Source: Candidatus Bilamarchaeum dharawalense (GTDB lineage Archaea; Micrarchaeota; Micrarchaeia; Anstonellales; Bilamarchaeaceae). Taken from it: 64,000 nucleotides of DNA. Position numbers and translations under genes: made by a program. The stretch spans positions 32,939-96,938 of the forward strand of contig CABMJJ010000003.1 in the NCBI GenBank assembly GCA_902386555.1, written 5' to 3'. Below the pieces are notes generated by a model. It saw only the letters and a list, made by a program, of their open reading frames with translations, was not told where the DNA came from and did not search any database. Positions 1 through 27,549 of this stretch are shown here, piece by piece. Every line of letters starts with the position of its first letter. Position 1 is the stretch's first letter.

Positions 1-462
1 GACTACAGCCCAGCAGCCTACGGTCCAAGAGTAAATGGTGCAGTTGGTTCTGGTTTGATGGTGCAGATAAGTGAGCCTGCGCCCCAGGCAACCTTAACAA
101 CTGACAGTTTACAACAGGATGGACAGGCATTCTTTACTGGCAACAGAATTGGGGGGAAAATAGACAGCGTACTTGAAAGTCTTCTTGCTGATACAGGTGC
201 AGATGGGACTGCGGTAAATGGTGTTCTTACCTCCAGATTTACAGGGAATAAAGAACAGCTATCTGGTGCAGTAAAGGCAAGATGGTATAGGGAACTTTCA
301 ACTGCAGCACAAAATCCAACTGTGCAGGGTTCTCTGAAAAGTGTAGGGATAACAGTTACCAAAACAGAAACAGGATTCGATGTCACTGTGGATTACAGCA
401 GAGCAGAACAGGTAATACGAAGCATGACCCTAACTTATGTAAGAGATCTTAATCCCAAGTAA
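1..462 (+). CDS. 3' end of a hypothetical protein entering from the left edge
   Basis: Frame 1 is open from base 1, with no stop before the listed ATG at 55, and ends at TAA 460-462. The sequence is Gly/Thr/Val-rich and no motif was recognised. Same strand as, and directly upstream of, the giant-gene array. Confidence 0.5.
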   Translation, partial: DYSPAAYGPRVNGAVGSGLMVQISEPAPQATLTTDSLQQDGQAFFTGNRIGGKIDSVLESLLADTGADGTAVNGVLTSRFTGNKEQLSGAVKARWYRELSTAAQNPTVQGSLKSVGITVTKTETGFDVTVDYSRAEQVIRSMTLTYVRDLNPK

Positions 463-505
463 TGCCTTTTTATGTATTTTCTCTTCTTAATTTCAATTCG
501 TCACA

Positions 506-513
506 TTTATAAA
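506..513 (+). promoter_or_regulatory. TATA-box-like element upstream of the small Lys-rich ORF and giant-gene array
   Basis: TTTATAAA sits in an AT-rich spacer roughly 36-43 nt upstream of ATG 549. This is archaeal promoter geometry with a very short leader. Confidence 0.35.
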
Positions 514-548
514 GAACCGGCGATATAATTTTATTGCGGGTGCGTACC

Positions 549-869
549 ATGGCTAAAAAGAAAGTCGTTGTTAAGGTTAAACCAACTAAGGTCGTGAGTG
601 TACCGGTCAAAACGGATGTTGCTTCAGTAGAAGCTGAGACCATAAAACGTGTCGGAAAAACTATTTCTACTCTTGAAGGCTTTCTCTCCAGATGGGATGC
701 GTCAAAGATTAAACCTGACAGCATGTTTCCTCAAGTCGTTAAGATAAGAAAATTCTATCAAGCACTTAATTCTTGGCAGAAGGATGTCACAGACAAAAAA
801 AATGTGGACGATGAGACACGCACACGAAGATTACGCGACTTCGTATTTATTTGTAAATCCTATTCATAA
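549..869 (+). CDS. Small lysine-rich hypothetical protein (106 aa from ATG 549; the track ORF starts at TTG 534)
   Basis: ORF with N-terminal AKKKVVVKVKPTKVV. Its stop, TAA 867-869, lies inside the Shine-Dalgarno-like AAGGTGGTGG of the next gene. No family recognised. Confidence 0.5.
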   Translation: MAKKKVVVKVKPTKVVSVPVKTDVASVEAETIKRVGKTISTLEGFLSRWDASKIKPDSMFPQVVKIRKFYQALNSWQKDVTDKKNVDDETRTRRLRDFVFICKSYS

Positions 870-878
870 GGTGGTGGC

Positions 879-3800
879 ATGTCACAAACAGAACGTCAAC
901 CTGACAAAAAAGATAGATTAGTCATACACATAACATATAATCAAGCTGAAATAGCAGAATTACAACAATTTCTGAGAGAAGCACAAGGAGCCATTCAAGG
1001 TCTTAGAGAATATGCTCAGCGAGTTTCTGGTGGACCTGCACCCAGAACTGTTACTGACCTTGAAAAAGAAGTGGTCACATTAATGGGAATATTACGTTCA
1101 ATGAAATTAGAATCAGTGCCTATTTTTAAGGAGAGATTTGACTTTGAAATACACCAAATAGAGAAGTATATTACAAGTGCAAGAGAAATGGCTGGCACTG
1201 ATCCTGCCAAAGCATGGATAATGCTGACAGAAGCACAACAAAGAATGGAAGCACTTGGTGTTGTTTTCGTATCTGCAGTAAAATTTGTGGAAAGAGGATT
1301 GCCAGAAACCTATAGAAGAGGCGAACTTAATCCAGAAGAGACCATGTCGCGAGTACAGGATGCTGCAGAATGGGCTGCTTTGCAACTCGGAGGTAAATAT
1401 GACCGATTGGCAAAAGCTATTTTGAGAGCACACAAAGCACTTACTGATAACTTTGATTGCTATGTTTTTGATGATGATAACACAGTTAGAATTTATGATA
1501 ACCTGACAGCGTTTATTTTAGAACGCCACCAGATTGGTGACAGAAACGGAGTGTACAGTGAAGATCAGGCAAGAGCCGATGATAAGGCATTGGAAAAATT
1601 TGAAGGTAATTTCGTTGAATTAAGAGTTCAGGTAAAGGAAAGAAGTATTGCATTTTTGGAAAGCATGTCAGCAGCCTTGTTGCCATCACGACAATTAAGA
1701 GAAGGTGCAGCTGCATTGGCCGCAGAACAATATCATACCTGGCGGGATGAAGTTGACACATTAGTAAGAAAACTCAGAGGGGAAGACAGACCACTCGCAA
1801 CCTACGATGAAATGTGTAGAATCACTGCAGGGTATTTTGCACTAGTTGGAACGTTGGATGCTCCAGTAATGGGAGAAAAGGTGGCTGTTCTCCGAGATAG
1901 TGCAAAATTACTAAGAGGAAAAACAAGAGAAGGGGAGATAAGAGAAGGAACACCAGAGTGGTTTGGTCTTAGAGCATTGCAAGCCCTGGACCAGGGAAAT
2001 ACTAAGATGGCTGCTCTTTGCATAATGGTTGGAAACTTAGATAGACAATCATTTGACAGACTAAGAGACTATCTTCCATCCTACGAAGAGATAATGAGTG
2101 TGATAAGAAATAACAGAACGCCCACACCGGGTATGCTGGTTAGATTCACAAGTGAATTGCAATTTGCAAATGTTAAAGCAGAAACAGATGGACTTGTTGG
2201 CCAATATGTTGGCAAACAGGGTGAAAAAAATGAGAGGATACGGGCAGTGCTGACCACCATACTTGAACGAATAGAAAGAGGGGAGTTGGCAGATGCAAGA
2301 CGATTGCTTCTCATGGTTAAAACATACATTGAAATGATTAAAAAATACAAGAAAGAATGGGCTGGTTCTGGAGGTATGGAATCGGCAATTGATACCGAAA
2401 TACGAGGAGGAAATGGCCAGGAAGAGTTCAACAAAAGCATGGTCTACCATCAGTTCCAATTGGATTCTGCAAGAGTAAGAGAGACCTGGGCAGATTGGGG
2501 AACCGGAATGGTGATGCAGAAAAAAGTCATACGAACCGCATTGGATTATGCAGAATCATTGGCACGGGAAGGGAAAGGCCAGGAAGCTGCAAAAGTTTTG
2601 ACTCTGCTCACAATGTATGTGGATGCAGTGGAATTATTGGCAGTCAAAAAAGGAGGAAAAATCGCCTCACTGCGACAGGCAGACTTACCAAAATTACGAG
2701 GGATGGAAAGGGCATTGGCTGCAACAGCAAGAGGGGAAACCCAGGTTGATGAACTTGGTGTGGATGATGTGTTTGTTAGAAGTTTCAATGATGCACGTGA
2801 TCTTTACGTAGAACGAGAAATAAGCAGATTGGAAAAATTGGCTGTAGCACGACCAAACGGAAAAGAAACTGTGGTGCAGGCAATTGGAGTAGTAAAATCA
2901 AGATTAGCAAAAAAGAATTATGATGGTGCATTTACACTTTTGGCTTTACTCAGTGATTACTATGGTGGGGAAGTTGAAGCAGATCCTGCCAAAAAAATTC
3001 CAGCAAAAAGTGAAGGATGGAGATATGAGATATTTGCTGGCAGCAGTGTTTCGGGTATTGTGCAGGGTAGAGACAGGATGCTCGAAGCCATTAGATTGGA
3101 AATGGCTGCAAAAACAATAACTCAACATAAAACTGCAAATTCGAAATTTTTAGAAGGCGTTGATCTTGTTGGAATGAGTCATGCGCTCACAGTAGAATAC
3201 GACAGAATACTTGCAATGTATAATGGAAAAGAAAGAATGCAGGAAAAAGCACCACCTGGAAAAGTAATTGCCGGAAGAAGTGCAACTGGCCAGGATGTTC
3301 TGGTGGACATTGCAGATGTTACTGCCTATGAAAGAAGAGAAGCAGCCGAACCAAGAGACCCATTGCTTAAGGGAACACGACCACTTAGAGAAATTCTTGA
3401 AGACATGAGACGAGCAGCTGCAACAGGTAATCTTGTTGCATTCAATTCGTCAGTGGTTGAATTCAATATACGATTTGGAAATGCTGTGGCCGCATCCACC
3501 CGATCTATGATGTTCGATCAGATGATCGAGGGTTTGGATCAACTTCACACAGGAATGGCTTCGGTCTATGGAATGTATGATAATGTTCCTGAATTTAAAA
3601 TCGGTAAACGTAGCATTGTTGGTTACAAGTGGCGCGGAGACGGGGTAGTTAGAGAGGAATGGCAGGAAACTTCCAGAAGTACGTCCTTACATTACATGTC
3701 TCTGGATATGCCGCCAGAAGCTGTTGCAAGATTAACAGCACTGGAACAGAGAAGAGTACAATTGCAAAAAAGAATTGAAGATTTCAGAGCAGGACGAGGG

Positions 3801-6800
3801 GGGGATGAAGCCAGAATTATTCAGGATTATCAAAAATACATTGATGATTTCCAAGCAGAACAGAGACTTGCAACGGCCTATGTTGCCATTGATGGCCAGC
3901 TTAAACTCAATCCAGTCTACCGAAGCATGGTAGCACAAACATCAGGTCTTTTGGATGACGCAGTTGGAGGACCAACATCTGAAACTAGAACTTCCCTTGA
4001 TAGGTGTGCCCAGGCACTTGAACAGGCGAAAAAAGCCATACTGGCTGGAGACACTAAAGGAGCAGAACTTCAGTACCAAGTAGCAATGCAATACCGAGTT
4101 GCAGCAATGAAAAAGTATGGTATGGAAGGTTCCTATTATGTTCAACCCTCAATGGATGAGACCTGGGGATCAACACCATTTGAAGACATGGTAAATGAGG
4201 GAAGACAACGAGCATTGAGAGAACGGGATGGACAATATGAAGCCTATTTCCAACTTCAGATGGGTGCCTTCCGTGAAACATTATACGGAAAAGCAGAAGG
4301 AAGAAAAGAAAGATTAGAACTACAAAAAAGATTAGTTGATTCGGCCAGACTGATGGAACTTGCAATTTTTAGCATCCCTGGTAGAAACATTAGCCAGCAG
4401 GGCGTTGACTATGTAAATGAACAACACCGAATACGCACTGCAGTTATGCAGGCAGTTGGCGCTTTCCGAGCTGGAGATGTGCGAGCAGGTGAAGCTGCTC
4501 TTGCTCAGGCTGAAGCATCATGGAAAGATATACAAAAAATTTCCGGATATGTTGGATGGGGTGCAAATGCAGCATACACACTTATTGCATTGGGCATTAC
4601 GTTTGTTCAACCAGAAATAGGTATTGGTATGATTTTAGCTCAGCAGGCAGATGGTGCCTATGTTGAACATCATGTGAATGGTGCAGTTTCAGCTGAGACC
4701 TGGGTTATGATGGGATTAACAGTTGCAACAGGGGGATTAGGAAGAGCCTATGGAGTTTACAGAACTGCAGCAACAGCAGCAAGAATTGCAGAAGAAACAG
4801 AAGCTGCAGTAAGATTAACGAACGTAGCAACAACACTCGGAAGAACATCCATAACTGTTGGAGCAGGAATGACAGTATATATGGGTGCTCAATCCTACGA
4901 AGCATTTGAAAGGGGAGATATCAAAAACGGATTATTCAACGCAGGTATGGCATTATTCCCCTGGTTGCATATGGGTGGAGCCTACTTACGGTCAAGAAGC
5001 GCAGCAGTACCAGAAGTTAGGTTGGACGCAGCAGCAGAAGAATTGGCACCAACAGTTCCAAAACCAGTTGTTGATGTTGACCCAACAGTGGTTCCAGAAA
5101 CACCAGCAGTTGCAAGACTTCGCAATCCAAAAGTTTTATTGGAATTTTTAAGAGGATATGTTCGTGCAGCTCCAGCAGTTAGAGAATCAATGATAGCTGG
5201 ATTGCCTGAACATGTTCGAGGTGCGGTAGATAGTCTTATACAAAACCCTGCAATGCAGCAGGCACTTAAAGCACCTGATTCTTCAGTTGTTTATCTTTCA
5301 GCAGAAGATGCAATGGCTAAGGCCATAAGAACATTTGAGAAACCACCAACAACACCTGGTCCAACAGGAATTGGACCATTCCAGGAAGCAGCAAATTGGC
5401 TGGCAACTAAAGGAGTCACATTGCAAGGATTTGTTGGTGATCTTTTAGCAGGACAATCAGTTGCAAAAGCAAGATTAGCAGAAATCCGAGCACAGAGTCC
5501 AGAGGTGGCAGCAATCATTGATGGGTTGCTTGAAAATACCACGGTGCAGTATGCAGCTAAAAAAGGACCAAATCCAATTTCTGAAGCAATCTACAGAAAA
5601 GCATTGGCAGATTTAGAAAGAATTGTTCCAAGAGATATTGTACAGCAGGAAGTGCAAGCACTTGAAGTTTACGAAGTACAAGTAGTTGGTGGAGAACCAA
5701 TTCAGATGATTGGACGAGTTCCGCCAGGTGACATGCCTGGAACCAGAACTCCAACAATGATGGGAGGACGATCACCAGAAATGGGAGGTAGAGCACCACA
5801 GATCGTTGGAAGTGCTGAAGGAACAGGTGGTGGTAGACCCCCAGTACCAAGAGCAGGGGCTGGAGATACTGGAGGACCAGTTGTAACCGACGGTGGTGGA
5901 ACTGGAGGGAGACCATTACCACCTAGTCGTGGAACAGTTCGTAGAACAATAGACGCAGTAACTCCTGATTTCATTTTGGATAGAGTAGCTGAGCTTAAAG
6001 CAAAAAGAGCAGCAGAAAAAGCAGCAAAGGCACGAGGTCCCCAGGACATTCAGGCTCCAGAAAGTTTTGTAGAACAAGCCGCAGGTGATCTTGAAGGAGT
6101 ATTGACAAGAGTGGGAACAACAGAACAACGTGCAAGAGCATTGGCAGAAATACGATCACGACCAGAATACCTGGATAGAACAGGTGCACTTACAGAGGAA
6201 GGAATTCGGGAAGCCGAGGGAATTCATGCAGCCACTGGTGAAGTTGTAGGACTTTTCAAAGGACTCTATGAAAGAGCAAATGATTCAAGACTTGCACCAG
6301 GATTAAGAGAACACGCAAGAACATTGATGGAAAGATTATATGCAAGAGAAAATGTTCGTGCAGCATTGGAAGAAGCTGCATTTGATGACCCTGCTCTTGC
6401 ACGCGCATTTAGAGAAACCGAAACAAGAAGTGCATTGGCAAAAGGTGGACGCACTGATGCTGAATATTATGGTAGTTTAAGAGAGGCAGGTTTCAAACCA
6501 GAGGATATAACTGCAATTGTGGATGTTCTAGAAACACCTGTGCTTAAACAGGTAGTGGAAGCAAGAACAAAAATTGCTGAAGCAAATAAACGAGGAGCAG
6601 AACTAACAGGCCAGATTGTAGAAGCGCAACCGAAATTAGTTAAAGCAGATGCGGCTCCGAGAAAAGCATTTGTAGAAAAAAGTGGGAGAGCAGTAGAAGA
6701 AGCTCAAGCACAATATGAAAAATTAGTTGCCGAGCGTGACGCAATTGATGTGGTACAAGTACAGGATGAACTAGGAGGAGTACCCCCAGGTTCACCTGAA

Positions 6801-9800
6801 GCATCACGATTGCAAGCAACCATTGACAGGGCAGCAGCACTTGATGCTGTATTACCAGAACTAAGACAGCAATTGGACGGAGCAGGATACATGATAGAAG
6901 GGGTGGGACAGGTTAGATTGGATAGAGTCGCCCCAAGAGATTTAGCACAGAGAACACAGGAAATTAGATTGGGATTGGAAACTATTGAAGCACAATTAGC
7001 TAGAGCAGACCAATTGCTTAGAAGTGTTGGTGAGGAGGGAGTCGTTAAAAAACCTGCTAAGATTCCCGGGAAAGTAGCCTGGGTACCGAAAGTGGAGGAA
7101 TTAACAGATGGTGCCAGAGTTGCATGGGAAAAAGCAGTGAGAAAACCATTGGATAGAGTAGTAGAACTTACCCAGGGATTAAGACAAACAAATCAAGTTA
7201 TAGCAGATGCAGGAGAACTGTTGGCAAGACCAGAAGCCCAACCATTGGCAACAACTGAAAGAGTACTTGGGATAGAAATTGGATCAAAAGCAAGAGCGGA
7301 AATGTTGGTTAAATTAGCAGACACAGGCAAACTTCCAAAAGAGATGTTGGATGGAGAAGCAAATGGACTGGTTAGAGGAACACAGGAAGCAATAGGCAGA
7401 ATTCCAATACCAGATGAAGCTCCAATAACCCGATTAATACGGGAAAGAATAATGGAAAGAGCCAGACAAGGTGGAGAGATAAAAGAGATAATTCTTAAAG
7501 TTTTGAGAAGTGACGAGGTTGCAAGAGAGATCGGAGCTAGATACGGGCCAGAGATGGAAGCAGATTATCGAAGAGCAGTATCAAGCGACGTTGTTGATAC
7601 TGCATTGGCTGAGTGGAATCAGAAAAACCCAAGACAGCAAAGAACAGCTTTTGATCAAGTGATGTTTAATTTACGAGCAATGGAAAATGGACAGGTATCC
7701 AATTTTGTTACAACAATGACAACCAACTTTAGTGATGTGTTTGGTGCAATACAAGTTTACACCGACGCCCCAGTGCTTACTGCCTATCGCGCAGAGGTTT
7801 TGGCTAGAGGAGGACAGGTTGCACCTGAATTTGGAAGTGCAACTGGTGCTGCCTGGCGCTGGGTACGGGAAAAAGCACCGAGTGGTTTGGTTACCGTAGT
7901 TGACTATGGTTTTGGTCCTGTTAGAGGTTGGAGAGCAAAACCAGGAGAACCATTAAGTGGTAAGATCGGTCCCCTTCGTAGAAAAGGACTTGCGAGGATA
8001 CAGGAAGCTGTTGATGCAGGCCAGACTGTCGAGGGTGCAAAAATTGCATGGGGTAGGGCATTCATTGCTGCTCAATATGCTTTGTGGATCGGTAATGCTG
8101 CATTCTTTGAATATTATTGGGGACCATGGGTTGGACAAAAAGTTGCAAACATTTTCACAGAACCAAATGTAAAAATAGAACGCGGTCCTGGTAGATGGCT
8201 ATGGAGCCAAGCTGGAGATTTGATAAATGAAATATTTGGCACCTCAACCTCAGCAAAAGAAGGGCGTAGATTGGTTAGAGAGAAATTAGGTGTGGATATT
8301 TCAGAAGAAAATGCTGAAGCAATTATAAAAGACCCTAATGTTAGGATGTTCCTGGATAGATGGAGATTCCTATTCCCACAAAACCAGGGAGAGCAGCAAG
8401 GAGAAAGTCCAGAGCGCAGACCAATGAATATGCAGGAAGCACTGAAAAAAGAGGGCGGATTTATTCACCCTGCAATGTTGGACAAGGTACTTGATGATGT
8501 TAGAGAAATGTCTGAGCAGATGGGTGATGTAAACAAATATATTACCAGAATCGAATCCGGTCAAGATACGGATGGAGAGACCAGAAAGAAATTAGATGCC
8601 ATAGTAAACAGATGGGGAATTTCAACAGAGGCCATATTAGAATTAGTAAGGCAGAGAAGAACCTACGAACCAGGATATAATTTAACAGTGGTTGACCTGG
8701 CAGAGATCAGAAAAACCGGAGACTGGCTTGCAAAAGGGTACTATTATACTTTTGGCAGCACTCTTGTCCATACCTTCCTTAGCGACTGTGGCATAACTGA
8801 CCACCAGAGAGAAGTTGGTGTACTTCAGAAAAATCCTGATGCCTACGGGGTATTATGGAATCTGATTCAAAGTGGCCAGATACCCTATGCCTATGCTCAA
8901 CGAGCAGTGCAGATTCTAACTGGAGTTGGTGTGATTGAACAGCTAAGATTACAAGCTGAAGTCAATGATACCAAATTAGAATCACTAATAACTGAGATGT
9001 TTAAAGCATATGGAATGATCGTCCCGAATCCAACTAGACCAAGCGGCGTGACTAAAGAATCATTCCTTAGGGATCTTCAGGCTCAGGCAACTGCAGAAGG
9101 ATCCTATCCAGAAAAGGTTGCAATGTTTGTTGGAGAACAGAAAGATGTGTTCATTGCACTTTGGGGATTTGTCAATAATGGAGATGTGCCAGTTGTATAC
9201 GCACAACAAGCAATAATTGAATTAGGCAAACCTGGAAGCATAGCAGCCATACAGGCAAAAGTGCAGGCAGGACAAAAAATCGAAGACGCAGTTTATGAAT
9301 TTTTAAATGGAAAAGGACTGATCATTGCAATACCAACAGCAGATGGAACACGGGGAGTATCCCAGACTTCTGCTCTTGGATATTTGGATGAACAGGCTAG
9401 TTACTACAATCCAGAATTACTGCCAGCAGTACGAGCAATTTTCGATAGATACAAAGGAGATCCGGTTGCCCTTGCTGCTTTGGAACAAATTGAAATTCGT
9501 GACTCGGAAAGAGTGTACGGCGATCCTGAGAAATTTGTTGAATGGTTAGTAAGAAAAGTTACTGAAAGAAATGCTCTGGTAGCTGAAGCAACTAGAACAG
9601 GAAAACCAGCACCTCCGATGGTGAATTACAGAGATGAGGCAATTAGAGAAGGATGGATTGGAAGAAGATCATTTGCAGAACTTGATTCAAATGTTCTCAG
9701 ATTCCCAGAGCTTATGACTTTTGCTGGTCAACATCCAGGAGTAATGGACTGGGTTGAAAAACAAGCTGACAAGTATGACATAAATCTTGTGGCTATTCTA

Positions 9801-10439: not shown

Positions 10440-10449
10440 GTGGTATTAC

Positions 10450-12603
10450 ATGCCAAAACCAACTGCAGGGATAGCACTTAGCGGAAATACAATAGTGATA
10501 ATATTTACTGATGGTGAAAGGTTTTCCACTAGCCAAACCCTAAGTGCACAAGAAAGAGAAGACCGCAGCAAGGTTGATGCCAAAGTAAATGCTGCCTTAG
10601 ATGAAGCATATAGACATGCACAGACACAAGCCAAGAAAGATGAATTGCTTAATGATAAAAGAATCCAGCAAGCTTTATGGGATAAGCTTCACCCAAAAGT
10701 AGTGGGTGCACCTAAGAAAACAGGTCCTGGTATTGTGGAGAGAGTTATAGACAAAGGACAGGAACTTGCTGCAGAAGCAGAGAGAAGAAGGCAAGAACAA
10801 GCACGGAAAAGAGAAGAAACCAGGAGACCAACCGATAGAACTGCATCTCCAGGTCTCAAAAAAGTAGACCAGAGATACATATTACAACAGATAGCAGCAA
10901 CTGACCGAGCAGGAACTGCAACCACGCTTGTAACTAGAAAAGAAGAAATTGATGGCTTTCTGAAGCAAGACCAAAGGGGAACGGAAAGAACAAAACAACA
11001 AAGAGAGACAACAGTTGCCATATTCAATGAATTGGCTGCCAATGTGCCTGCATTCAAAGCCTATCTTAAGCAAATGGCTGCAACTCAAAGAAGCGAATAT
11101 CCGGAATTTGTCCAGTTGTTTGTATTCACCCAAGATCAGAATGCCAAACTGGACATATCAACCCAAGCCGAGATTTTACGTGCTGCAGATTTATTCATAA
11201 GATATTTCCTAATAAATTTTGGAGCCAATACTGATCCAAGTTTCCGAAGAGAAATAGAACAGTTGGTTGGACTAAAAGCAATTTTAGATGAATCAAAACC
11301 ATTGGCAAAAAGACTTGCCATGGGCGGTACCATTGATAGTGACACCATGGCGGCTGCTGAATTATATATTAGAAGATGGCAGTTGATTCATCCAAAAAAA
11401 GGTGCAGCACAAAAAGCAGATGAAATTCCAGTATGGGAAGCACCCAGAGTGGTAGTTGAAGAAGCACCAGCAGAAGCAATGAGAAGAGTGGCGATAATTG
11501 GTGACTCCATAAGCGCAGATGGAGTATATGGACAGGAACTTCAAAAATTATTAAGGCAGGGCGGAGCCAAGGCAGCTGTTGAGGTCTACGGAGTAAACGG
11601 GGACACTTCCTACGGGGCAAAAACAAGATTTAGAAGAGATGTACTTGGAAAAAAACCACCCTACGATACTGTGATAATACAAATCGGGGTTAATGATATT
11701 GCACAAAGAAGACCAGTAACTGAGATTCAAAAAAACATTAGAGAGATGATAGAAGCTGCACAACAAGCAGGAATGCGAGTGGTAATCCTAACTGTTACAC
11801 CATGGCAAGGAACAGGAAGTGCAACTGAACGAGCCATTAGAGACACGGCCCAGTTGAATGAATGGCTACTTGCAAAAACAGATCCTGCACTTAAGGATGT
11901 TACTGTGGTTGACATGAAAAGTTTGGGGAATCCAACTAACCCAGCAGAATTGGCTCCGGCATATAGAGATGGAGCAGAAAGATTGCACCCAAATGAAGCT
12001 GGAAAACGAGAGATGGCAAGAGTAATTGCAGCATCCCCGGCTTTTGGAGTAACAGATGACCGACCAGTCGTTGGAACAGTTGTCCAAACAACAGACCTGG
12101 CAAATGCAGCCCGATCAGGATCTCCAGACCCTGCAAAAATTGTTGAATTAACTCAAGCACCTACAGCTTTGAAAAAAGAGGAGATAGGAAGATCGTTTGT
12201 AACTGTAATAAATGAAGACTTGCTCAAGGATGGCCAGTTTGTTGAATTTATGAAAAGAAAATACCCTCAATATTGTAAAAAAGGAGAAGTAATTAGACTT
12301 GCAAGTGATGCACCAGAGGCAGCTGTTCGTGTTTATGTCAAAGCAGTCCAGGAATTTTTAAATGAACAGGCAACCGCAGATTACAGACTAGGAAAAGATA
12401 TCGCAAAGTTGTATCAAAAATTAGGAATGCCTGCAGAAGAACGCATTAGACCAGACCCTGCAAATCAATTGTTAACATTAAATATGATTGCACTTTATCA
12501 ATGGAGAAAACTTCACAGAACCGAAGAACCAGGAAAATGGGGCGAAAGAATCGGTGTACCAGTGGACAAACCAAATCAACCATTGGAGATTCATGGCTTT
12601 TAA
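10450..12603 (+). CDS. 717-aa protein with a central SGNH/GDSL hydrolase domain flanked by unknown modules
   Basis: AGGTGGT at 10438-10444 overlaps the giant ORF stop (TAG 10437-10439). SGNH blocks are IIGDSIS (I), GVNGDTS (II), IQIGVNDI (III) and DGAERLHPNEAG (V), at about nt 11488-12035. No obvious N-terminal signal peptide. Confidence 0.85.
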   Translation: MPKPTAGIALSGNTIVIIFTDGERFSTSQTLSAQEREDRSKVDAKVNAALDEAYRHAQTQAKKDELLNDKRIQQALWDKLHPKVVGAPKKTGPGIVERVIDKGQELAAEAERRRQEQARKREETRRPTDRTASPGLKKVDQRYILQQIAATDRAGTATTLVTRKEEIDGFLKQDQRGTERTKQQRETTVAIFNELAANVPAFKAYLKQMAATQRSEYPEFVQLFVFTQDQNAKLDISTQAEILRAADLFIRYFLINFGANTDPSFRREIEQLVGLKAILDESKPLAKRLAMGGTIDSDTMAAAELYIRRWQLIHPKKGAAQKADEIPVWEAPRVVVEEAPAEAMRRVAIIGDSISADGVYGQELQKLLRQGGAKAAVEVYGVNGDTSYGAKTRFRRDVLGKKPPYDTVIIQIGVNDIAQRRPVTEIQKNIREMIEAAQQAGMRVVILTVTPWQGTGSATERAIRDTAQLNEWLLAKTDPALKDVTVVDMKSLGNPTNPAELAPAYRDGAERLHPNEAGKREMARVIAASPAFGVTDDRPVVGTVVQTTDLANAARSGSPDPAKIVELTQAPTALKKEEIGRSFVTVINEDLLKDGQFVEFMKRKYPQYCKKGEVIRLASDAPEAAVRVYVKAVQEFLNEQATADYRLGKDIAKLYQKLGMPAEERIRPDPANQLLTLNMIALYQWRKLHRTEEPGKWGERIGVPVDKPNQPLEIHGF

Positions 12604-12639
12604 TTTGTTTTTTTTCTCTGAAGGGGCTGACGCCCCTTC
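12604..12639 (+). terminator. Oligo-T tract plus perfect 8-bp GC-rich hairpin after the SGNH gene
   Basis: TTTGTTTTTTTTCTC at 12605-12619 is followed by GAAGGGGC-TGAC-GCCCCTTC at 12620-12639. Archaeal termination typically uses oligo-T. Confidence 0.45.
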
Positions 12640-12766
12640 AAAACCCCACGCGCGAAGTGCGTCATCTAACAAAAAAACACGAGCGGTAGCGAGTGCAATA
12701 AAAAGAAACACACCTTTTAATGTCTTCGCACACAATATTATTAGGGGGAATTCGTGAAGGGAGAGG

Positions 12767-15700
12767 ATGGCAGGTACAAGAATATATCGAAGTGGCCAGA
12801 ACGATTTAGGCGAATTGCCCTCGCAACAAAGAAAGCGATCAATTTTTGGAAGATGTCATACTGTGGCAGCTGCAGCACTTGTTGGTGTGCTGACGTTGAC
12901 CAGCGGAACAAATATAAAGAATCTTGGAGGTAATATTGCTATGGCACAAACTCATCCTGTGGCTGAAAGAACCCTGACTAGAAAAGCAGAAGACGCAGTC
13001 AAATCCTACAAAGAATATATGCTTACCGGAAATCCTGCAGCAAAAGCTCGCGTCGTGGAATATCTACAGGATAGATCACCGCAGGCTGTACAGGCATTTA
13101 CTACGGAATTTCTCAAACAATTAAGACCAGACCCAACAGGACCGATAATACGATCCTATGTGGCAATCGTCGGCTCGCTTAAAGTAGAAGACTTTTTGAC
13201 ATTGCTTGAAAAAGTACATGAAGCTGTAAAAGCAGGTAGACCAGCAGTACTTGCACTAAAAGGAACTGGAACAAAAGATCAGGAACTATTTGAAGAGGTT
13301 ATTACCCCACTGGTTAATCTTATTGGCCGGGCAGATTTATTGGATGTTTCTGCAGAAACCCGTTCCTCTGCCAGAACATGTGCAACCATGTTTGTCAGCC
13401 TGATTCAAACAAGAGAAAAGGAAACAAGAGACCAGATAGCAATCGACCTATGGAAACGAATGAAAAAGGACCTTGATGCCAATGGTGGTGTTTTTCCAGC
13501 AGGGTATATGGAAGAATTTTACGCGGTTGTTAAATCCACAAATCCAGAAATGGCTGCCATACTGATGGGTTACGCCAGAGATAAAAAATTGAGTGGACTA
13601 GACAAACTAACTCCTGCAGATGTAAAGGAATTATTTGAAGATCATTTGCTTCAGGTCATGGCCCAACTATGGGTTGGCCAGGCTGATCGTGGAGTACTGG
13701 CAAGAGTACATGGAAATGGACTAACAACTGCAGTAAATAGTTACATTGTAAGTGTCTCGACGATCAAAAAAGCAATAACAGTTCAAGAACTTTTAACACG
13801 AATTGATGAAGTTGAAGCATTCCTGAAAGAAAGAGGAATTACATTACCAACCATCACAGGATCAGTTGTTGGACGAGTGCCAACACCAGAAGAAAATTTA
13901 GCTGGGCTTTTGAAATCATGGAGAGATAAGCTAACCGCATCTCCTCCTCCAGATCAAAAAGCACTGGAAATTTTAAGCTACCAAATCCCCAATCGTGCGG
14001 AAGTAGAAGAAGTGGAAAAAGTAACAACCATTAGAGCAGGAAGAATAGAAAATATGATTGAAGGAAACGGCAGTTTCTACGAAGTACTGGGTGCAAAAAT
14101 ATTCGTACCAAGATTGGAAAGTTATCTTGCTCAAGTGGATTATTACGTGATGGATCCAAGAATTGGGAACTTTGCTGGCGTGTTCATGAGAACACACCAT
14201 GTTGATAGAGATGCAATGAAACAACTTTTGGATACAGTAAAATCTGTTAATACTGCAATCCCAGCAGCAATAGAAACATTGGATACTGACCTACTTGTAT
14301 TTGCAGCTCAGGATGCTGCAGGAACAACAGGTGGGGAAGCTCTTAGATTAGAACGCATAGCACAGTTCAGACAACTGTTGAATAGCCAGATAGATTTGAT
14401 CACGGATAAGATGGCTGCTTTCAAAGGGATAATAAGTCACACTCCAGAATGGGACGAACTCAGAAAAAAAGTTGCGACTAGAGTTATGAGACAATATGTT
14501 GCAGTTGGATCGTTTGTCCCTGGACAGATTGATCCGGCAACAGATAGAGTGATAACCCAGCCCAAGGATCCTGTTGAACTATTGGTCAGACAATATGAAA
14601 TGATAGCGCGAGATCAGGGTTATCTTAATTTCCGAGCAACTTTCACCGATGCACTCGGGGTATATATGACTGACCTAACTGCATCACCTGCTGCCACAGA
14701 AGGAGAAAAATTCATGGCAGCTTCAAGAATTTCAACAGCCCAACAGGCAATCCAAATGTTTTCCGGACTTCCATTGCAATCAAGCTATGCACTTTATCAA
14801 GCACTCCAGGCGACCTATGGAAGCCTAAGTTCCCATTATAGAAATACTGAAGAAATGGCAAGAGTTTGTTCTTTGATTGTGGGGTATAGCCAATTGCCGC
14901 CAGCCTATGCAGCACTTGCCTATAGGGAAACAACTGCACCACTTCTCAAAACCTATGATGAAGCTTCTATTCTTGCGATTACCAAAGCAATTAGCGGATA
15001 TAGTCAAATGTACATTGCAGGTGATCATTACAGGCTGATGGAAGAGTATTACGGAACATTGGCAGAGAAAATAGCCAAACTATTTCCAGATATAACTGCA
15101 ATGCAGGCAGATCGTAGAGAGTTAACAAAAGATGTTCGAGTTAGAATGCCGCCAGAAGCAGAATACGGTGAAGTAATGATACCCGGTGCGCAACTAACAA
15201 TCCACATTCCAAAAAGAATATACACCACCTGGGCCCAGAAATATGGCCTAACAGTAAGTGCAGCCCCCAGGATTATTGAAAATCCTGCAGCTGCAGCAGA
15301 TTTGTTCCAGGCCATGGGTAGATATTTTGGGGAACCGATGGTATCTGCACGTACCAACATCCCATTCCCTTGGATGAGATTGCCAATTTTGTTAAATAAC
15401 TTGGGTGTGCTAGCACCAGAAACATTCCCACCGGTTGGTGAATTTATTGCGTTACACATGGGAGGAGATGTAACCTATAAATTGAACAAGGTGGATACCT
15501 CAGCTCCTGAAGGGGATACAACCACAAGATCTGATCAAGGTAATATTGGTGTTTTTGCTGAGGCAACACGAGAAGGTCAGGTAACAACTGCAAAAGCAAG
15601 ATATGCAATAACTGCCAATACAACAACCGGACCAGATGGTGTAACAACTGGAGATAGAACCCATGTTGGAACACTTGAATTGCAACAACTCAGACTGCAC

Positions 15701-17737
15701 ACCGATGCAGCAGGAGATTATAACGTACATGGTTTCTCTGCAGATATTACAGTTATAGAAGAACCACCAGTGGTAAAAGCAGGAGAACCGCCAGGAACAG
15801 GATTGGACAGTAGAGTTGCTGCCGTAGGTACCTTGTGGTCAGGTGCAGCACCTGCTGGTGCAGACACATTAATCTACTTCAAACGATTACAGGCACGAGA
15901 CACCGTTGGACCAGATGGAAATGTTGTACCGGGTGATGTTTCCCTTGTTGCGCACATATTCCAAAGATTACCAAATGGAAGTTTTGGTGAGGTGGATACA
16001 GTAACCATACCTAAGGAACAAGCTGAAGCATTGTACTGGAAGACAATGCAAAAACCAATGCAAAGATTATATGGGGCTGCAAGAGTGCAGACCGGAGATG
16101 TGCTGGTTCAGATGGATGGTGCATTCCTATTCTCAGGACCATTTAGCGGACAACCAGAATCAGAATGGGATCAGTTCCAAGGTGCGGGTGTGGCAGCCCA
16201 GAAAGGAGAATGGGGCGGCTATGTGGACTATGAAGAAACCAGAGGAAGAAGAGGAGCTGCTGCATTTGGAAGATTTAGACCAGAGGAACGATCATTGTGG
16301 ATTGGAAGATTTTCAATGGATATGTTCAAATACGGAGATGAGGGTGCAGGCAACAAATATTACGCAGAAGGACAGTACATAAAAGTAGATAAAATGGAGG
16401 TTAAGGCATTTGTTGGCTTTAGCGATAGAAAAGAAGATATGCCTAAAAAAGACCTTCAGGGAGTTGTAATTCTAAATTATGTTTTCGGTGAAAGTGTTCT
16501 TGGTTATAGATATGGTGGTCTTGGAGGAGGAAGGCTTATTAGAAGAAGCGGAGCTCCAGGAAGCCAATTTACCGACGATATGAGTGGTGGTAGAGCATAC
16601 GGAATCCAGGATGACCTGATGGGCGGTATTGTTGTATCTGGATTATATAGAAGGTTCACAATGCAACAGGGAGCTCCAGCACAAACACCACTCGGAGATC
16701 TTGGTATCCCATCAACAAATCCTGCACTGGATGAGGCAATTGCATCGCAACATCCTGAACTGGGTGAAGCAGCACCAACTGATGTTCCGGTTGCAGAGCA
16801 AAAACTTGTTGCCGCAGGATTTAGAAGATTATTATCAGCACAACACGGCCTTGAGCTTGGTGCACTTTGGGACTTTACACCAAATGAAGGTGCTGCCTTT
16901 GTACAATATGACTGGACCCCAATGGGGAGAACATTTACAAGTATGAGATTAACTGCAGCCATTGTTTACAAGAAAATAGGTGGCGATCCGCTTGAATCTG
17001 GAGGAGAGCACATTGCAATACCTTTAGTTGGTGGCGCAACTGATTGGATTGCAAATGACAAAGTTAGATTGAAACTCGAGGCCTTCTATCCAGGAATAGG
17101 AGAGATGAAGATATTTGCACCACCAGTGGATACGGTATTTGGTGGAGGTTACCTGGACAGAATAGCAACTGGTGGTCATATCGGTTTTAGAATACCACTT
17201 ACCTTGGACAGACGATTGATTCTTGGAATACTTGGCAGTGGAAGCAGAGACTATGACACTGGTGCAACCATCCAGGCAACTCCAACAGGTGAACTAGCCG
17301 AGACCGAGGGTGGAACCACTCAGGGTGAAGGTGCAGTTGGATTGTTCTACACATTCCCAACATCAGGTACTGGATTGCAATTGGGTAATGTTTACGGATG
17401 GGTAACTGGAATGTACCAAGACGATTTGTTAACCCGAGGTCGTTCCTATCAACTTGATGCTGTGGGAGGCGCGATGTTTACTGATGCCACCACTCAAGTT
17501 AGAGGACAACTAGGATTCCAGCACTGGCAATCCTGGATGCCAGAAGTTGATACAACCCAGATGAGAGATGCCCTTACCACAAGTCTGGTTATTTCAAAGA
17601 GAGGATTCCTTGGTAAATATATAGATCCGTTCTTGAAATTTGACTTTAGCTTTGGAAGAAGGGTTAGAGATGTTGGTCCAACTAGAACTGAAGAAATGGA
17701 CATCCAAGGAACATTTGACCTGGGAGCAACATTCTAA
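12767..17737 (+). CDS. Large (1656 aa) predicted secreted or anchored hypothetical protein with a beta-rich C-terminal third
   Basis: GGGAGAGG lies upstream of ATG 12767. The N-terminal hydrophobic segment VAAAALVGVLTLTSG...NIAMA-Q looks like a signal peptide or anchor. The C-terminal about 450 aa is Gly/aromatic-rich with alternating hydrophobic patterns and ends ...IQGTFDLGATF. Confidence 0.85.
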   Translation: MAGTRIYRSGQNDLGELPSQQRKRSIFGRCHTVAAAALVGVLTLTSGTNIKNLGGNIAMAQTHPVAERTLTRKAEDAVKSYKEYMLTGNPAAKARVVEYLQDRSPQAVQAFTTEFLKQLRPDPTGPIIRSYVAIVGSLKVEDFLTLLEKVHEAVKAGRPAVLALKGTGTKDQELFEEVITPLVNLIGRADLLDVSAETRSSARTCATMFVSLIQTREKETRDQIAIDLWKRMKKDLDANGGVFPAGYMEEFYAVVKSTNPEMAAILMGYARDKKLSGLDKLTPADVKELFEDHLLQVMAQLWVGQADRGVLARVHGNGLTTAVNSYIVSVSTIKKAITVQELLTRIDEVEAFLKERGITLPTITGSVVGRVPTPEENLAGLLKSWRDKLTASPPPDQKALEILSYQIPNRAEVEEVEKVTTIRAGRIENMIEGNGSFYEVLGAKIFVPRLESYLAQVDYYVMDPRIGNFAGVFMRTHHVDRDAMKQLLDTVKSVNTAIPAAIETLDTDLLVFAAQDAAGTTGGEALRLERIAQFRQLLNSQIDLITDKMAAFKGIISHTPEWDELRKKVATRVMRQYVAVGSFVPGQIDPATDRVITQPKDPVELLVRQYEMIARDQGYLNFRATFTDALGVYMTDLTASPAATEGEKFMAASRISTAQQAIQMFSGLPLQSSYALYQALQATYGSLSSHYRNTEEMARVCSLIVGYSQLPPAYAALAYRETTAPLLKTYDEASILAITKAISGYSQMYIAGDHYRLMEEYYGTLAEKIAKLFPDITAMQADRRELTKDVRVRMPPEAEYGEVMIPGAQLTIHIPKRIYTTWAQKYGLTVSAAPRIIENPAAAADLFQAMGRYFGEPMVSARTNIPFPWMRLPILLNNLGVLAPETFPPVGEFIALHMGGDVTYKLNKVDTSAPEGDTTTRSDQGNIGVFAEATREGQVTTAKARYAITANTTTGPDGVTTGDRTHVGTLELQQLRLHTDAAGDYNVHGFSADITVIEEPPVVKAGEPPGTGLDSRVAAVGTLWSGAAPAGADTLIYFKRLQARDTVGPDGNVVPGDVSLVAHIFQRLPNGSFGEVDTVTIPKEQAEALYWKTMQKPMQRLYGAARVQTGDVLVQMDGAFLFSGPFSGQPESEWDQFQGAGVAAQKGEWGGYVDYEETRGRRGAAAFGRFRPEERSLWIGRFSMDMFKYGDEGAGNKYYAEGQYIKVDKMEVKAFVGFSDRKEDMPKKDLQGVVILNYVFGESVLGYRYGGLGGGRLIRRSGAPGSQFTDDMSGGRAYGIQDDLMGGIVVSGLYRRFTMQQGAPAQTPLGDLGIPSTNPALDEAIASQHPELGEAAPTDVPVAEQKLVAAGFRRLLSAQHGLELGALWDFTPNEGAAFVQYDWTPMGRTFTSMRLTAAIVYKKIGGDPLESGGEHIAIPLVGGATDWIANDKVRLKLEAFYPGIGEMKIFAPPVDTVFGGGYLDRIATGGHIGFRIPLTLDRRLILGILGSGSRDYDTGATIQATPTGELAETEGGTTQGEGAVGLFYTFPTSGTGLQLGNVYGWVTGMYQDDLLTRGRSYQLDAVGGAMFTDATTQVRGQLGFQHWQSWMPEVDTTQMRDALTTSLVISKRGFLGKYIDPFLKFDFSFGRRVRDVGPTRTEEMDIQGTFDLGATF

Positions 17738-17883: not shown

Positions 17884-18285
17884 TTATTTTTTCTTTGGTG
17901 TTTCCAATTTAATTTGGATTTTTGGAGAAAGCAACGGCGGAGTCATGGACAATGCTTTTGCCACTAGAACACCGTTGCACTGTGCCTGGAATGTTACGGC
18001 GTTGATGAGCTGTTCGCCCAGTTCTCTTGGAATCAGTTTGTCTTTTTTCCAAACAGTTGCGAGTTGATTAATTTCTGTGCTGGTACCTTCTATGAGCACA
18101 TAGCCATTGAATTTTATGTGTGCAACATAGGGATCATACATCACAGAGAAAATGAAATCAGTGCGAAAATCAGAACCAGCAACTTTAGCATCCTGGATGT
18201 TTAGGTTGACTGCGACATTGGTAAATGCATCCTCTTTGACATGCTCAGCTTCTACCTTATAAAATTTAATTGCCTTCAGTTTCAT
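17884..18285 (-). CDS. Hypothetical protein, 133 aa
   Basis: Clean ORF with no confidently recognised motif. Confidence 0.6.
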   Translation of the reverse strand: MKLKAIKFYKVEAEHVKEDAFTNVAVNLNIQDAKVAGSDFRTDFIFSVMYDPYVAHIKFNGYVLIEGTSTEINQLATVWKKDKLIPRELGEQLINAVTFQAQCNGVLVAKALSMTPPLLSPKIQIKLETPKKK

Positions 18286-25941: not shown

Positions 25942-27549
25942 ATGGATTCTTTTACTTCAGAAGAGAAAGCACTATTAGAAAATTTCGTTTCGAATACTTC
26001 TAGCAGCGTATTTGTACTGAAAAATCTTCCTGAAGTTGTAAAAGGTGCTTTATTTTCACGATATAGCCGAAGCGCCAAATCACTGCGCCGAGTACTGCTT
26101 GATGAATTTATGCTCGCACCGGAAATTGGCCTTGGGGAAGGTCTGGAAGTTTTACAAAAAAAACAACAAGACCCAGTGCAAACAAGGAAGGCAGAGGAAT
26201 TTTACGAAAGAGTGTTGGTTGGCTATGGCGATGACTCTGTGGCTGAACTAGCAGGAGCGCATATTGCAATGGAAGATATCTCCATTCTTGCAACAAAGAT
26301 AGTTGAGGATGCGAGAATAGGTTTGTCACCGCTTGAGAAATCAACACGGTACGTTTATTTTGATACAAAAAAAGACGGAAGATGGATGTATCTTCAAGAG
26401 AAAACTTTGATGGGTTCGGAATTTGCAGAACTCTATCAAGAAAGCTGCGACTTTTGTTTTGAAACCTATGCTGACCTTATCCCGAAGGTATCCGAATGGG
26501 TGATGAAAAAATCACCAAAAGACAAGGACACTACGGATCGTGCTTACAAATCAACAATACGAGCAAAGACCTGCGATTTACTTAGAGGGCTATTACCTGC
26601 ATCAACATTGACAAACATGGGTTTCTTTGGTGATGGTAGGGCCTATGAATATCTCTTAACGAAGATGTTTGGTGATGATCTGGCAGAGGTAAAGGACCTG
26701 GCTACTATGATGCAAACAGAACTTGCAGAGATCATACCATCATTTGTAAAAAGATCAAATGGCGAATTTGGTATTCTAATGCAGAATTACCTTAAAAAAG
26801 TAGCAGAGGATACTGATGCTTTGGCTAGCAGATATGCCGGTGCAAGTGGCGGTGAGGGAGTTACCCTAGTTGAATATGATAAAGATGCTGAAAGAAAGAT
26901 TGTTGTTTCGATTCTCTACCCACATTTACAAAAACCAATGGATGAAATTGGAAAAATCGTAGAAAAAATGACAAAAGAAGAAAAAGAAAAAATAATCAAA
27001 CTATATATTGGTGAAAGACAAAATCGCAGGCACAAACCAGGAAGAGCATTCGAACATGTTTTCTATACCTTTGATGTTTGTGGAAATTATGGCGCCTATC
27101 GGGATCTTCATCGTCATAGAATTCTAACCCAACAACGCCAGCCCCTAACCCCATTTCTTGGTTATAAAATACCGCATGAAATTGTTGAGGCAGGTTTTGA
27201 AAAAGAATTCAAAGCAGTTATGGATAGATCAAAGGAAGCCTATGGGAAGATTGTAAAAAAATATCCGAAAGAAGCACAGTACGTTGTTCCGCTTGCCTAC
27301 AATATAAGATGGTATATGAGATTCAATGTAAGAGAGGCATATCATTTGCTTGAATTGAGAAGTTCAATGCAGGGGCATAGAGATTATCGTGAAATAGCCC
27401 AACAAATGTTCAAAGAAATTGAAAGGGTCCATCCGCTTTTGGCATCTGGGATGAAATTCATGGATATGAAGGAATATGAATTTGAACGTCTGGAAGCAGA
27501 AAAAAGAATAGATATTAGATTAGAGGAGATTGCGAAAAAATATGGCTAG
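25942..27549 (+). CDS. thyX: Long-form ThyX-like (Thy1 family) flavin-dependent thymidylate synthase homologue
   Basis: GALFSRYSRS occurs near the N-terminus. The signature-like YRDLHRHRILTQQRQ has Thr where the RHRxxS motif has Ser. 535 aa, about twice a canonical ThyX. Confidence 0.6.
   Translation: MDSFTSEEKALLENFVSNTSSSVFVLKNLPEVVKGALFSRYSRSAKSLRRVLLDEFMLAPEIGLGEGLEVLQKKQQDPVQTRKAEEFYERVLVGYGDDSVAELAGAHIAMEDISILATKIVEDARIGLSPLEKSTRYVYFDTKKDGRWMYLQEKTLMGSEFAELYQESCDFCFETYADLIPKVSEWVMKKSPKDKDTTDRAYKSTIRAKTCDLLRGLLPASTLTNMGFFGDGRAYEYLLTKMFGDDLAEVKDLATMMQTELAEIIPSFVKRSNGEFGILMQNYLKKVAEDTDALASRYAGASGGEGVTLVEYDKDAERKIVVSILYPHLQKPMDEIGKIVEKMTKEEKEKIIKLYIGERQNRRHKPGRAFEHVFYTFDVCGNYGAYRDLHRHRILTQQRQPLTPFLGYKIPHEIVEAGFEKEFKAVMDRSKEAYGKIVKKYPKEAQYVVPLAYNIRWYMRFNVREAYHLLELRSSMQGHRDYREIAQQMFKEIERVHPLLASGMKFMDMKEYEFERLEAEKRIDIRLEEIAKKYG

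Follow-up and report, generated by a model that had tools for sequence, protein, structure and literature searches.

The attachment organelle of Mycoplasma pneumoniae comprises the cytoskeletal proteins HMW1, HMW2 and HMW3 together with the products of the P1 adhesin operon, while the SPEARE proteins of DPANN archaea are defined by serine-protease, adhesion and restriction-endonuclease domains. Giant surface proteins have been reported from other DPANN archaea, including Nanohaloarchaeota (PMC6642349; PMC10266531), and within Micrarchaeota SLP_Mh, the S-layer protein of Candidatus Micrarchaeum harzensis, has a mass of 101 kDa, homology to S-layer domains and numerous predicted sites of glycosylation (10.1101/2021.04.28.441871). 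Cryo-electron tomography of the Micrarchaeota-related symbiont ARM-1 has visualised, in the envelope of the symbiont, a barrel-shaped complex of 21 nm to which nanotubes of the host dock, as well as cytoplasmic protein cages or ‘tubular organelles’, over 100 nm in length and 50-70 nm in width, in ARMAN and ARM-1 cells (PMC11329633). Here we describe an array of giant genes, and a small gene beside it, in a 64,000-nucleotide stretch of Candidatus Bilamarchaeum dharawalense DNA (assembly GCA_902386555.1, contig CABMJJ010000003.1, positions 32,939 to 96,938; hereafter the window), which is a chromosomal piece from a small-genome DPANN archaeon of the Micrarchaeota.

The array contains five forward-strand open reading frames (ORFs), which we label U (a partial ORF), S (a small ORF), G (a giant ORF), E (an esterase) and B (the last ORF); T is a 133-aa minus-strand ORF that follows. 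An earlier sequence-only reading of this DNA had interpreted the five as one multi-component apparatus, and deep conservation of their order in relatives supports this view. It is highly likely, judging from gene content and order, that U, S, G, E and B, with T, form one co-functional, membrane-associated module. The whole of our favoured explanation, that this is a vertically inherited Micrarchaeota module which builds a membrane-associated protein assembly, we consider to be evenly poised. All five ORFs were recovered where that reading had placed them and jointly cover 27.7% of the window; the features of the locus are as follows, where L001 to L015 label the loci of relatives, and L001 and L002 both denote the nearest relative.

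1-462, forward strand: U, the C-terminal 153 residues of a protein of ~1,300 aa, cut at the window edge; the fragment takes in the domain that is also found in G (from comparison with L002).
505-544, forward strand: promoter-like block ahead of S, with the TATA-like ATTTATAAA (505-513) and the leader ATAATTTTATTGCGGGTGCG (525-544) (from conservation among the window, L002 and L013).
549-869, forward strand: S, a basic protein of 106 aa (pI 10, 16% Lys) with a Lys-rich N-terminal tail.
879-10439, forward strand: G, the giant protein, 3186 aa and 352 kDa.
2244-3248, forward strand: tandem helical repeats of G, residues 456-790 (from hhalign of sub-alignments).
4551-4988, forward strand: hydrophobic cluster of G, residues 1225-1370, taken as a membrane anchor (conserved in seven lineages).
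8196-10436, forward strand: conserved all-alpha C-terminal region of G, residues 2440-3186 (from hmmsearch and AlphaFold2).
10041-10436, forward strand: the part of G that is shared with U, residues ~3055-3186 (from hhalign and blastp).
10450-12603, forward strand: E, 717 aa, with an SGNH/GDSL core at residues ~345-525, nucleotides 11482-12024 (PF13472).
12608-12639, forward strand: terminator-like element between E and B, with an oligo-T run (12608-12615) and a GC hairpin (12620-12639) (from folding).
12767-17737, forward strand: B, 1656 aa, with a signal-like N-terminus at residues ~26-60, nucleotides 12842-12946.
17884-18285, reverse strand: T, 133 aa, with a Lys-rich C-terminal tail (from its neighbours in relatives).
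In relatives, L009 22543-24984, L012 23637-30107, L014 27773-28406 and L015 21598-28703: proteins with a B-like N-terminal module.

Gene contexts were compared between the window and 12 further Micrarchaeota lineages, which together span GC contents of 37-66%. S lies directly upstream of G in all 13 lineages, E is found downstream of G in 11, U upstream of S in eight (with a U-like fragment in L009 in addition), and T beside the array in six, while B follows E in the window, L001, L009, L013 and L014. The complete order U-S-G-E-B is present in the window and its nearest relative, in L013 and in L014, and in L009 the order S-G-E-B is preceded by the U-like fragment of 899 aa and an unrelated 540-aa gene. 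The proteins keep typical sizes of ~1,300 aa (U), ~105 aa (S), 2,700-3,600 aa (G) and ~1,600 aa (B), and the usual site of the array is just downstream of a ribosomal-protein/prefoldin/FtsY cluster, with FtsY upstream in seven lineages. Scans of genome contigs and of metagenome contigs each returned one locus. The gene order is kept among lineages whose module proteins share only 25-40% identity, and conservation in related metagenome-assembled genomes (MAGs), a check that the sequence-only reading had itself proposed, is thus borne out in 13 lineages.

The nearest relative, a Candidatus Micrarchaeota MAG, carries U (1296 aa), S (106 aa), G (3134 aa), E (732 aa) and B (1624 aa), then T, and beyond T the genes for Trm56, PGM, PRPP synthase and GGR in the same order as in the window; upstream of its array lies the ribosomal-protein/eIF6/prefoldin/FtsY cluster. 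Identity between the two genomes is 42% for G, 40% for E, 40% for U, 59% for B, 76% for S and 70% for T, compared with 67-89% for the flanking Trm56, PGM, PRPP synthase, GGR and ThyX. Judged by these values, the module proteins diverge approximately twice as fast as the flanking housekeeping genes. As far as these comparisons indicate, the module is vertically inherited and so far found only in Micrarchaeota.

A potential alternative explanation for this pattern is that the genes are mere neighbours, i.e. fast-evolving orphans retained by chance beside the FtsY cluster and lacking any shared function. The variable presence and position of U and B would fit this idea, as would the insertion of toxin-antitoxin and TnpB genes inside or beside the array in some lineages. 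However, order and strand have been kept over very deep divergence while the surroundings changed in L009, L010 and L012, T accompanies the array also in lineages where Trm56 does not, S-G-E is translationally coupled, and U and G have a domain in common, such that we regard chance retention as very unlikely. The inserted genes are toxin-antitoxin pairs (NTP_transf_2/HEPN, MazEF, ParE) and a TnpB/IS605 gene, which in relatives occupy array borders or the spaces between array genes (L008 4456-5431; L011 8520-9514 and 25947-26210; L012 7394-8593 and 22924-23513); the window has none. In L004 (1363-19025), from a high-GC Micrarchaeia MAG, G is tandemly duplicated into proteins of 2825 and 2895 aa that are 51% identical, with S in between.

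The junctions between genes point to a core unit within the array. The stop codon of S falls within TAAGGTGGTGGCATG (867-881), inside the ribosome-binding site of G, and the stop codon of G falls within TAGGTGGTATTACATG (10437-10452), inside the ribosome-binding site of E; both sites are of the GGTGG type, and the S-G and G-E spacings are 9-10 nucleotides. The first four ORFs had been read as tightly coupled, which holds for S, G and E but not for the partial ORF U. Because U and S are separated by 86 nucleotides and E and B by 163, the tight unit is S-G-E. The U-S spacer contains the conserved TATA block (505-513), and this block and the 20-nucleotide leader are nearly invariant in the window, L002 and L013, while the remaining spacer is unalignable. 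The block at 505-544 is likely to be the promoter and 5' untranslated region of S-G-E; we infer the promoter function of 505-513 from its match to the archaeal TATA consensus. In the spacer between E and B (12604-12766) we find the oligo-T run, a perfect 9-bp GC hairpin and additional small hairpins, and the fold of 12598-12770 has a minimum free energy of -46.3 kcal/mol (z = -2.15). This element looks like a terminator, with a small RNA as a possible alternative; an Rfam search of the window gave no match.

The array is native to its genome. Within-amino-acid codon fractions correlate closely between the array and 40 other genes of the window (r = 0.96), in agreement with the native codon choice that had been judged by eye, and GC content at third codon positions (GC3) is 0.28 in the array vs 0.35 in the other genes. 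The higher overall GC of the array was considered as a sign of foreign origin and rejected, as it is explained by a composition rich in Ala, Arg, Gly and Gln, and GC3 is in fact lower in the array. Compared with the proteins encoded at 17738-64000, those of the array (1-17737) show strong enrichment of Ala, Arg, Gln and Gly together with depletion of Lys, Ile, Asn, Ser and Cys; the array also uses more AT-rich synonymous codons than 17738-64000, and its coding strand has unusually high GC and AT skews. The remainder of the window consists of archaeal housekeeping genes, including aTrm56, geranylgeranyl reductase, the PolD small subunit, tRNA-intron endonuclease, FttA/aCPSF1, ThyX and ArgG/ArgH. 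These archaeal markers, and the fact that all named relatives are Micrarchaeota MAGs, uphold the small-genome archaeal host that had been suspected. Among the ~35 window proteins scanned there are no mobile-element or virion genes, confirming the reported lack of capsid, terminase, integrase and transposase genes nearby.

These observations bear directly on the possibility that the locus is a remnant or domesticated virus tail module, in which G would act as the tape-measure protein, S as a chaperone of assembly, E as an esterase associated with the tail and B in receptor binding. The layout is superficially similar, with a small gene, a long helical protein with central hydrophobic segments and an SGNH protein, and weak PHROG matches exist from the esterase core to tail proteins (E 1e-3) and from S to phrog_1435 (E 5e-4). 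Tape-measure proteins also head the list of BFVD structures found with the C-terminal 747 aa of G, at a non-significant E of 0.24 or more and template-modelling (TM) scores of 0.08-0.10 against tape-measure models. However, the window holds no capsid, terminase, portal, tube or integrase genes, codon usage is native, and the array occupies the same chromosomal place between FtsY and Trm56 in lineages of 37-66% GC. Moreover, G, B and S have no relatives in the 2.9 million viral contigs of IMG/VR, G has none in 50,697 INPHARED phage genomes, Foldseek TM scores are ~0.1, and G, B and U match no tape-measure or tail family in PHROGs or Pfam. With no viral context, no viral relatives in these collections and no structural match for the modelled C-terminal 747 aa of G, a virus or tape-measure origin is close to refuted, and we consider it extremely improbable.

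Two further genes of the window lie apart from the array. At 58974-61220 (forward strand) lies the gene of a 748-aa protein whose signal peptide is of class III (type IV pilin-like) and whose C-terminus has a von Willebrand factor A domain, making it a candidate pilus-tip or surface adhesin, with no relation to the array. ThyX (25942-27549, forward strand; 535 aa) contains two Thy1 stretches and is approximately twice the usual length, and a similarly long ThyX (534 aa, 84% identical) is present in the nearest relative.

A HMMER search with residues 520-1620 of G against 1.84 billion cluster representatives (50% clustering) returned 57 relatives, 53 of which fall below E 1e-10. They are mostly 1,700-3,600 aa in length, the others being fragment-like, and all those with names are hypothetical proteins of Micrarchaeota. 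The N-terminal 1,400 aa found no match in an index of 5.8 billion proteins, where the cluster of the window protein is represented by a fragment of 273 aa and the word filter was swamped with low-complexity candidates. Neither G nor any of 16 diverse relatives has a Pfam domain, the protease, adhesion and endonuclease domains of SPEARE proteins included, and a 7-sequence G profile had no sequence match in the PDB. The N-terminal ~1,200 residues are helical and include at least three tandem helical repeats of ~100 aa each between residues 456 and 790, where hhalign pairs 456-550 with 666-790 (probability 95.5%, E 1.4e-8) and, less strongly, with 551-665 (probability 64%, E 6.5e-5). The central cluster of hydrophobic helices that had been noticed is real (residues ~1225-1370) and conserved in seven lineages; it consists of four Gly-rich hydrophobic segments, the third and fourth of which are weakly hydrophobic. 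Beyond it, a Gly/Pro-rich linker (~1,600-1,690) leads into a poorly conserved helical stretch, with residues 1,700-2,300 the least conserved of all. The C-terminal region is conserved family-wide (2,440-2,960), with an hmmsearch match in ~27 distinct giants. An AlphaFold2 model of residues 2440-3186 (747 aa, 16-sequence alignment) reached a mean predicted local distance difference test (pLDDT) score of 83.3 and a predicted TM (pTM) score of 0.68; it is all-alpha and terminates in a beta-hairpin and a helix. Foldseek returned nothing significant for this model, with best E values of 0.48 against the PDB and 0.09 against BFVD at TM ~0.1, and a model lacking a counterpart in the PDB and in a viral fold library suggests new fold space.

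The charges around the four hydrophobic segments suggest how G may be oriented in the membrane. The loop after segment 1 is acidic in seven of seven lineages, and Arg and Lys are abundant in the loop that follows segment 2 and in the flank behind segment 4 in the same seven. By the positive-inside rule, we infer a topology with both termini inside and short external loops. This charge pattern fits a cytoplasmic position of both large domains of G, and the balance tips slightly towards the bulk of the protein being cytoplasmic. The surface exposure and host contact that the sequence-only reading had envisaged are not borne out: G, E, S and U lack signal peptides, N-glycosylation sequons are sparse, and the charges of G suggest a cytoplasmic position.

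The same evidence invites the hypothesis that the module forms an intracellular structure in place of an envelope or host-contact device, with G and U as membrane-tethered or self-assembling scaffolds of, for example, cages. The absence of signal peptides, which extends to T, the loop charges of G, the sparse sequons and the helical, repeat-bearing character of G are all compatible with this, and such cages have been reported in Micrarchaeota (PMC11329633). Nevertheless, B has a signal-like N-terminus in most lineages, rapid divergence is more typical of interface proteins than of internal scaffolds, and an esterase has no obvious role in a cage. We regard an intracellular structure as unlikely.

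The opposite possibility is that G is a surface fibre with an anchor, a stalk and a head. Under this hypothesis, an odd number of membrane passes would put residues ~1,400-3,186 outside, reaching through the S-layer to bind the host; this part would run from a conserved domain through the Gly/Pro-rich linker and a helical stalk of low conservation to a conserved head at the C-terminus. The domain order and the conservation profile (lowest at 1,700-2,300, family-wide at 2,440-2,960), the linker at ~1,600-1,690 and the weak hydrophobicity of segments 3 and 4 would all suit such a fibre; giant surface proteins are also known in other DPANN archaea (PMC6642349), and the apparent single pass of U (see below) would likewise put the domain that it shares with G outside. 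However, in every lineage the flank behind segment 4 is very rich in Arg and Lys, which favours the cytoplasm, G carries only 10 sequons in 3,186 aa, no adhesin, Ig-like, lectin or protease domains were found, and the confident C-terminal model is all-alpha with no adhesin-like match. A surface fibre appears to us a rather improbable architecture for G.

The window fragment of U shares 40% identity with residues 1144-1296 of its L002 counterpart, a protein of 1296 aa encoded upstream of S, and orthologues of 1261-1463 aa precede S in L006, L008, L013, L014 and L015. U and G share a C-terminal domain of ~120 aa (blastp E 1e-8 to 1e-16; hhalign probability 98.2%, E 4e-14), which neither B nor E contains. 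That U and G are paralogues over their whole length was considered and rejected, as the alignment is restricted to this domain. Family members have one clear hydrophobic segment, then a Trp-rich stretch, and downstream of the hydrophobic segment U (L002 5567-9457 and orthologues) has four invariant cysteines (CX10C...X28CC) in a family that is otherwise almost free of Cys. These could be a metal site or disulfides, which bears on the side of the membrane on which they lie. At L014 18369-19010, a 213-aa ORF that overlaps the end of G carries the shared domain; it probably reflects a frameshift or assembly error that splits G, or else is a free-standing copy of the domain.

In the 5.8-billion-protein index, B has a sole relative, the protein of the nearest relative (L001, 59% identity). 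Inspection of the loci identified orthologues after E in L014 (25% identity over 1,330 aa, E 5e-69), L009 (24%, E 1e-32) and L013 (the N-terminal 190 aa, E 7e-20). The signal-like N-terminus that had been noted in B is real, spanning residues ~26-60 and ending in AMA; the hydrophobic segment and an NINxxG...AMA motif occur in five of six lineages (window, L001, L013, L014 and L015) and are absent in L009. The protein has a helical N-terminal half and a Gly/aromatic-rich C-terminal half, and contains 3 sequons in 1,656 aa. As to the proposal that its C-terminal part is a beta-barrel, an AlphaFold2 model of residues 881-1656 from a two-sequence alignment had a pLDDT of 27.8 and is unusable for the barrel question, and a conserved C-terminal aromatic residue (the beta-signal) is not a feature of the orthologues: the final residue is Phe in three of five (window, L001 and L009), while L013 ends in ...GRRGE and L014 in ...RLLNM. 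Neither B nor its L001 orthologue matches an S-layer domain in Pfam or NCBIfam. Further proteins of very large size (1,500 to more than 3,000 aa) with the B N-terminal module lie after E or beyond B in several lineages, and it appears that the module can carry additional B-like paralogues.

E holds the only recognisable domain of the array, as had been observed, and this was upheld with Pfam, NCBIfam and PHROGs. Residues 350-520 match PF13472 with E 9.6e-25 and 88.5 bits, against a cut-off of 32.9, and the same family is matched by the orthologues in L001, L004, L006, L009, L012 and L014. The catalytic Ser of block I (GDS) and His of block V (DxxH) are conserved in all seven full-length orthologues and the Asn of block III (GxND) in six of them; as its acid residue, the window protein has Glu where the other orthologues have Asp. 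Motif conservation thus indicates that the esterase is catalytically intact. The core is flanked by family-specific regions, an N-terminal domain (1-340) and a C-terminal stretch of ~190 aa. The conserved esterase is the sole support for the suggestion that the apparatus might breach a partner envelope.

S is the best-conserved member of the module. A profile search of the 5.8 billion proteins identified 43 family members of ~100-125 aa, and those with names all come from Micrarchaeota, Micrarchaeia or Candidatus Bilamarchaeum. Invariant residues are E28, R34, W49, L73, W76, R94, L95 and Y105, and there is no match to S in the PDB or Pfam. A restriction-endonuclease-fold toxin was considered for S and rejected, the lone match (Tox-REase-7, 17 bits, E 0.006) being to one orthologue and below threshold, and a chaperone role for S is a guess. 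Being small and highly conserved, S offers a convenient metagenome marker for the module. T homologues directly adjoin the array in L001, L009, L011, L013 and L014, on either strand, and T stays beside the array even where its next neighbour (Trm56) differs, so that its position makes T a probable sixth member. No match to T was found in Pfam or the PDB, including by a PDB profile search, and the candidacy of T as a SecB-like chaperone was rejected (hhalign probability of 0.1% against Escherichia coli SecB).

Taken together, these features suggest that the module probably builds a lineage-specific cell-envelope structure. In the mechanism that we propose, G and its smaller partner U would be inserted in the cytoplasmic membrane by helical hairpins, and the helical-repeat N-terminal part (~1,200 aa) and the C-terminal part (~1,800 aa) of G would form a scaffold on the cytoplasmic face, perhaps by analogy with the attachment organelle of Mycoplasma and its giant cytoskeletal proteins, which are likewise restricted to one lineage. 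B would be exported by Sec and contribute the outer part of the assembly, beneath or within the S-layer, while E, tethered to the assembly through its own terminal domains on either side of the core, would remove acyl or acetyl esters from a substrate. S would be synthesised alongside G and act as its binding partner or as an assembly factor. Such an assembly would most likely serve contact or exchange with a host cell. This role is favoured because of the lifestyle of the organism, the rapid divergence of the proteins and the exported partner B, and we hold it tentatively, as a possibility somewhat short of an even one.

Several observations weigh against this proposal. Sequons are sparse in all members (0.2-0.3 per 100 aa), unlike in typical archaeal surface proteins, and the apparent single pass of U would put the shared C-terminal domain on the side of the membrane opposite to that predicted for G. 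The B orthologue of L009 lacks a hydrophobic N-terminus, and the module itself varies, with only S-G present in L010 and no recognisable U and E in L011. Furthermore, the module contains no ATPase, secretion or pilus gene, and nothing indicates an energised machine; the formation of a complex is deduced from gene order.

It is tempting to connect the module with the assemblies seen by cryo-electron tomography, for the components of which, both in the envelope and in the cytoplasm, it provides a short candidate list. That U, G and B are structural proteins of the 21-nm barrel platform or of the >100-nm cytoplasmic cages is, in our estimation, decidedly unlikely; in such a case E would process incoming or envelope material. 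If true, the module would supply the genes behind the DPANN side of the cytoplasmic bridge between host and symbiont, and this side would be built entirely from protein folds with no known relatives. Independently of this connection, Micrarchaeota genomes measure ~1 Mb, and the module takes up ~21 kb (~2%) at a fixed site beside core translation and targeting genes. Retention of a ~21-kb module in a reduced genome points to an important, lineage-defining function.

With reference to described systems, the proteins of the array stand apart in sequence. No Pfam domain was found in G, U, B, S or T, NCBIfam, PHROGs and PADLOC gave nothing significant beyond the esterase core, and single-sequence PDB searches with G and B gave nothing meaningful. 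Homology to S-layer, adhesin or virus-tail families, which the sequence-only reading had named as an outcome that would speak against it, was not found, and a full-text literature search located no paper describing the family. A defence system was considered and rejected, as PADLOC has no match for S, G, E, B or T and solely LmuB for U (12.6 bits, E 0.009).

Likenesses to known systems exist at the level of general plan. Like SPEARE-type proteins, G exceeds 3,000 aa in an episymbiotic DPANN archaeon, takes up a large share of a small genome and has a proposed part in host contact, whereas no domain can be recognised in G, U or B, a signal peptide is missing from G, and the genes form a multi-gene operon that is fixed in composition and site. 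G also recalls phage tape-measure proteins in being long and helical, with central hydrophobic segments and a small gene ahead, yet it differs from them in lacking sequence, profile or significant structural similarity and in being chromosomal and vertically inherited, with no viral context. E shares the core and the Ser, Asn and His blocks of SGNH/GDSL hydrolases (PF13472, which include phage tail-fibre and cell-surface glycan deacetylases), but has flanking domains found only in its own family, lacks a signal peptide and is translationally coupled to a giant membrane protein. SLP_Mh, an envelope protein of Micrarchaeota, resembles B in an N-terminal segment that could be either a signal peptide or a transmembrane segment, an acidic pI and few Cys residues, and B is unlike it in its mass of 181 kDa, its 3 sequons and the lack of an S-layer domain match.

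The Mycoplasma attachment organelle likewise belongs to a genome-reduced, host-dependent cell and combines very large, lineage-restricted helical or repeat proteins encoded in operons, a membrane-proximal cytoplasmic scaffold, an exported protein of ~1,600 aa and fast sequence evolution. In contrast to that organelle, with which it has no sequence or fold similarity (no Pfam matches), the module belongs to an S-layer-bearing archaeon, counts an SGNH esterase and a small, conserved basic protein among its products, has a giant protein that is embedded in the membrane, and is not tied to any polar organelle. Apart from the SGNH core, the protein families and the architecture of the module match nothing known.

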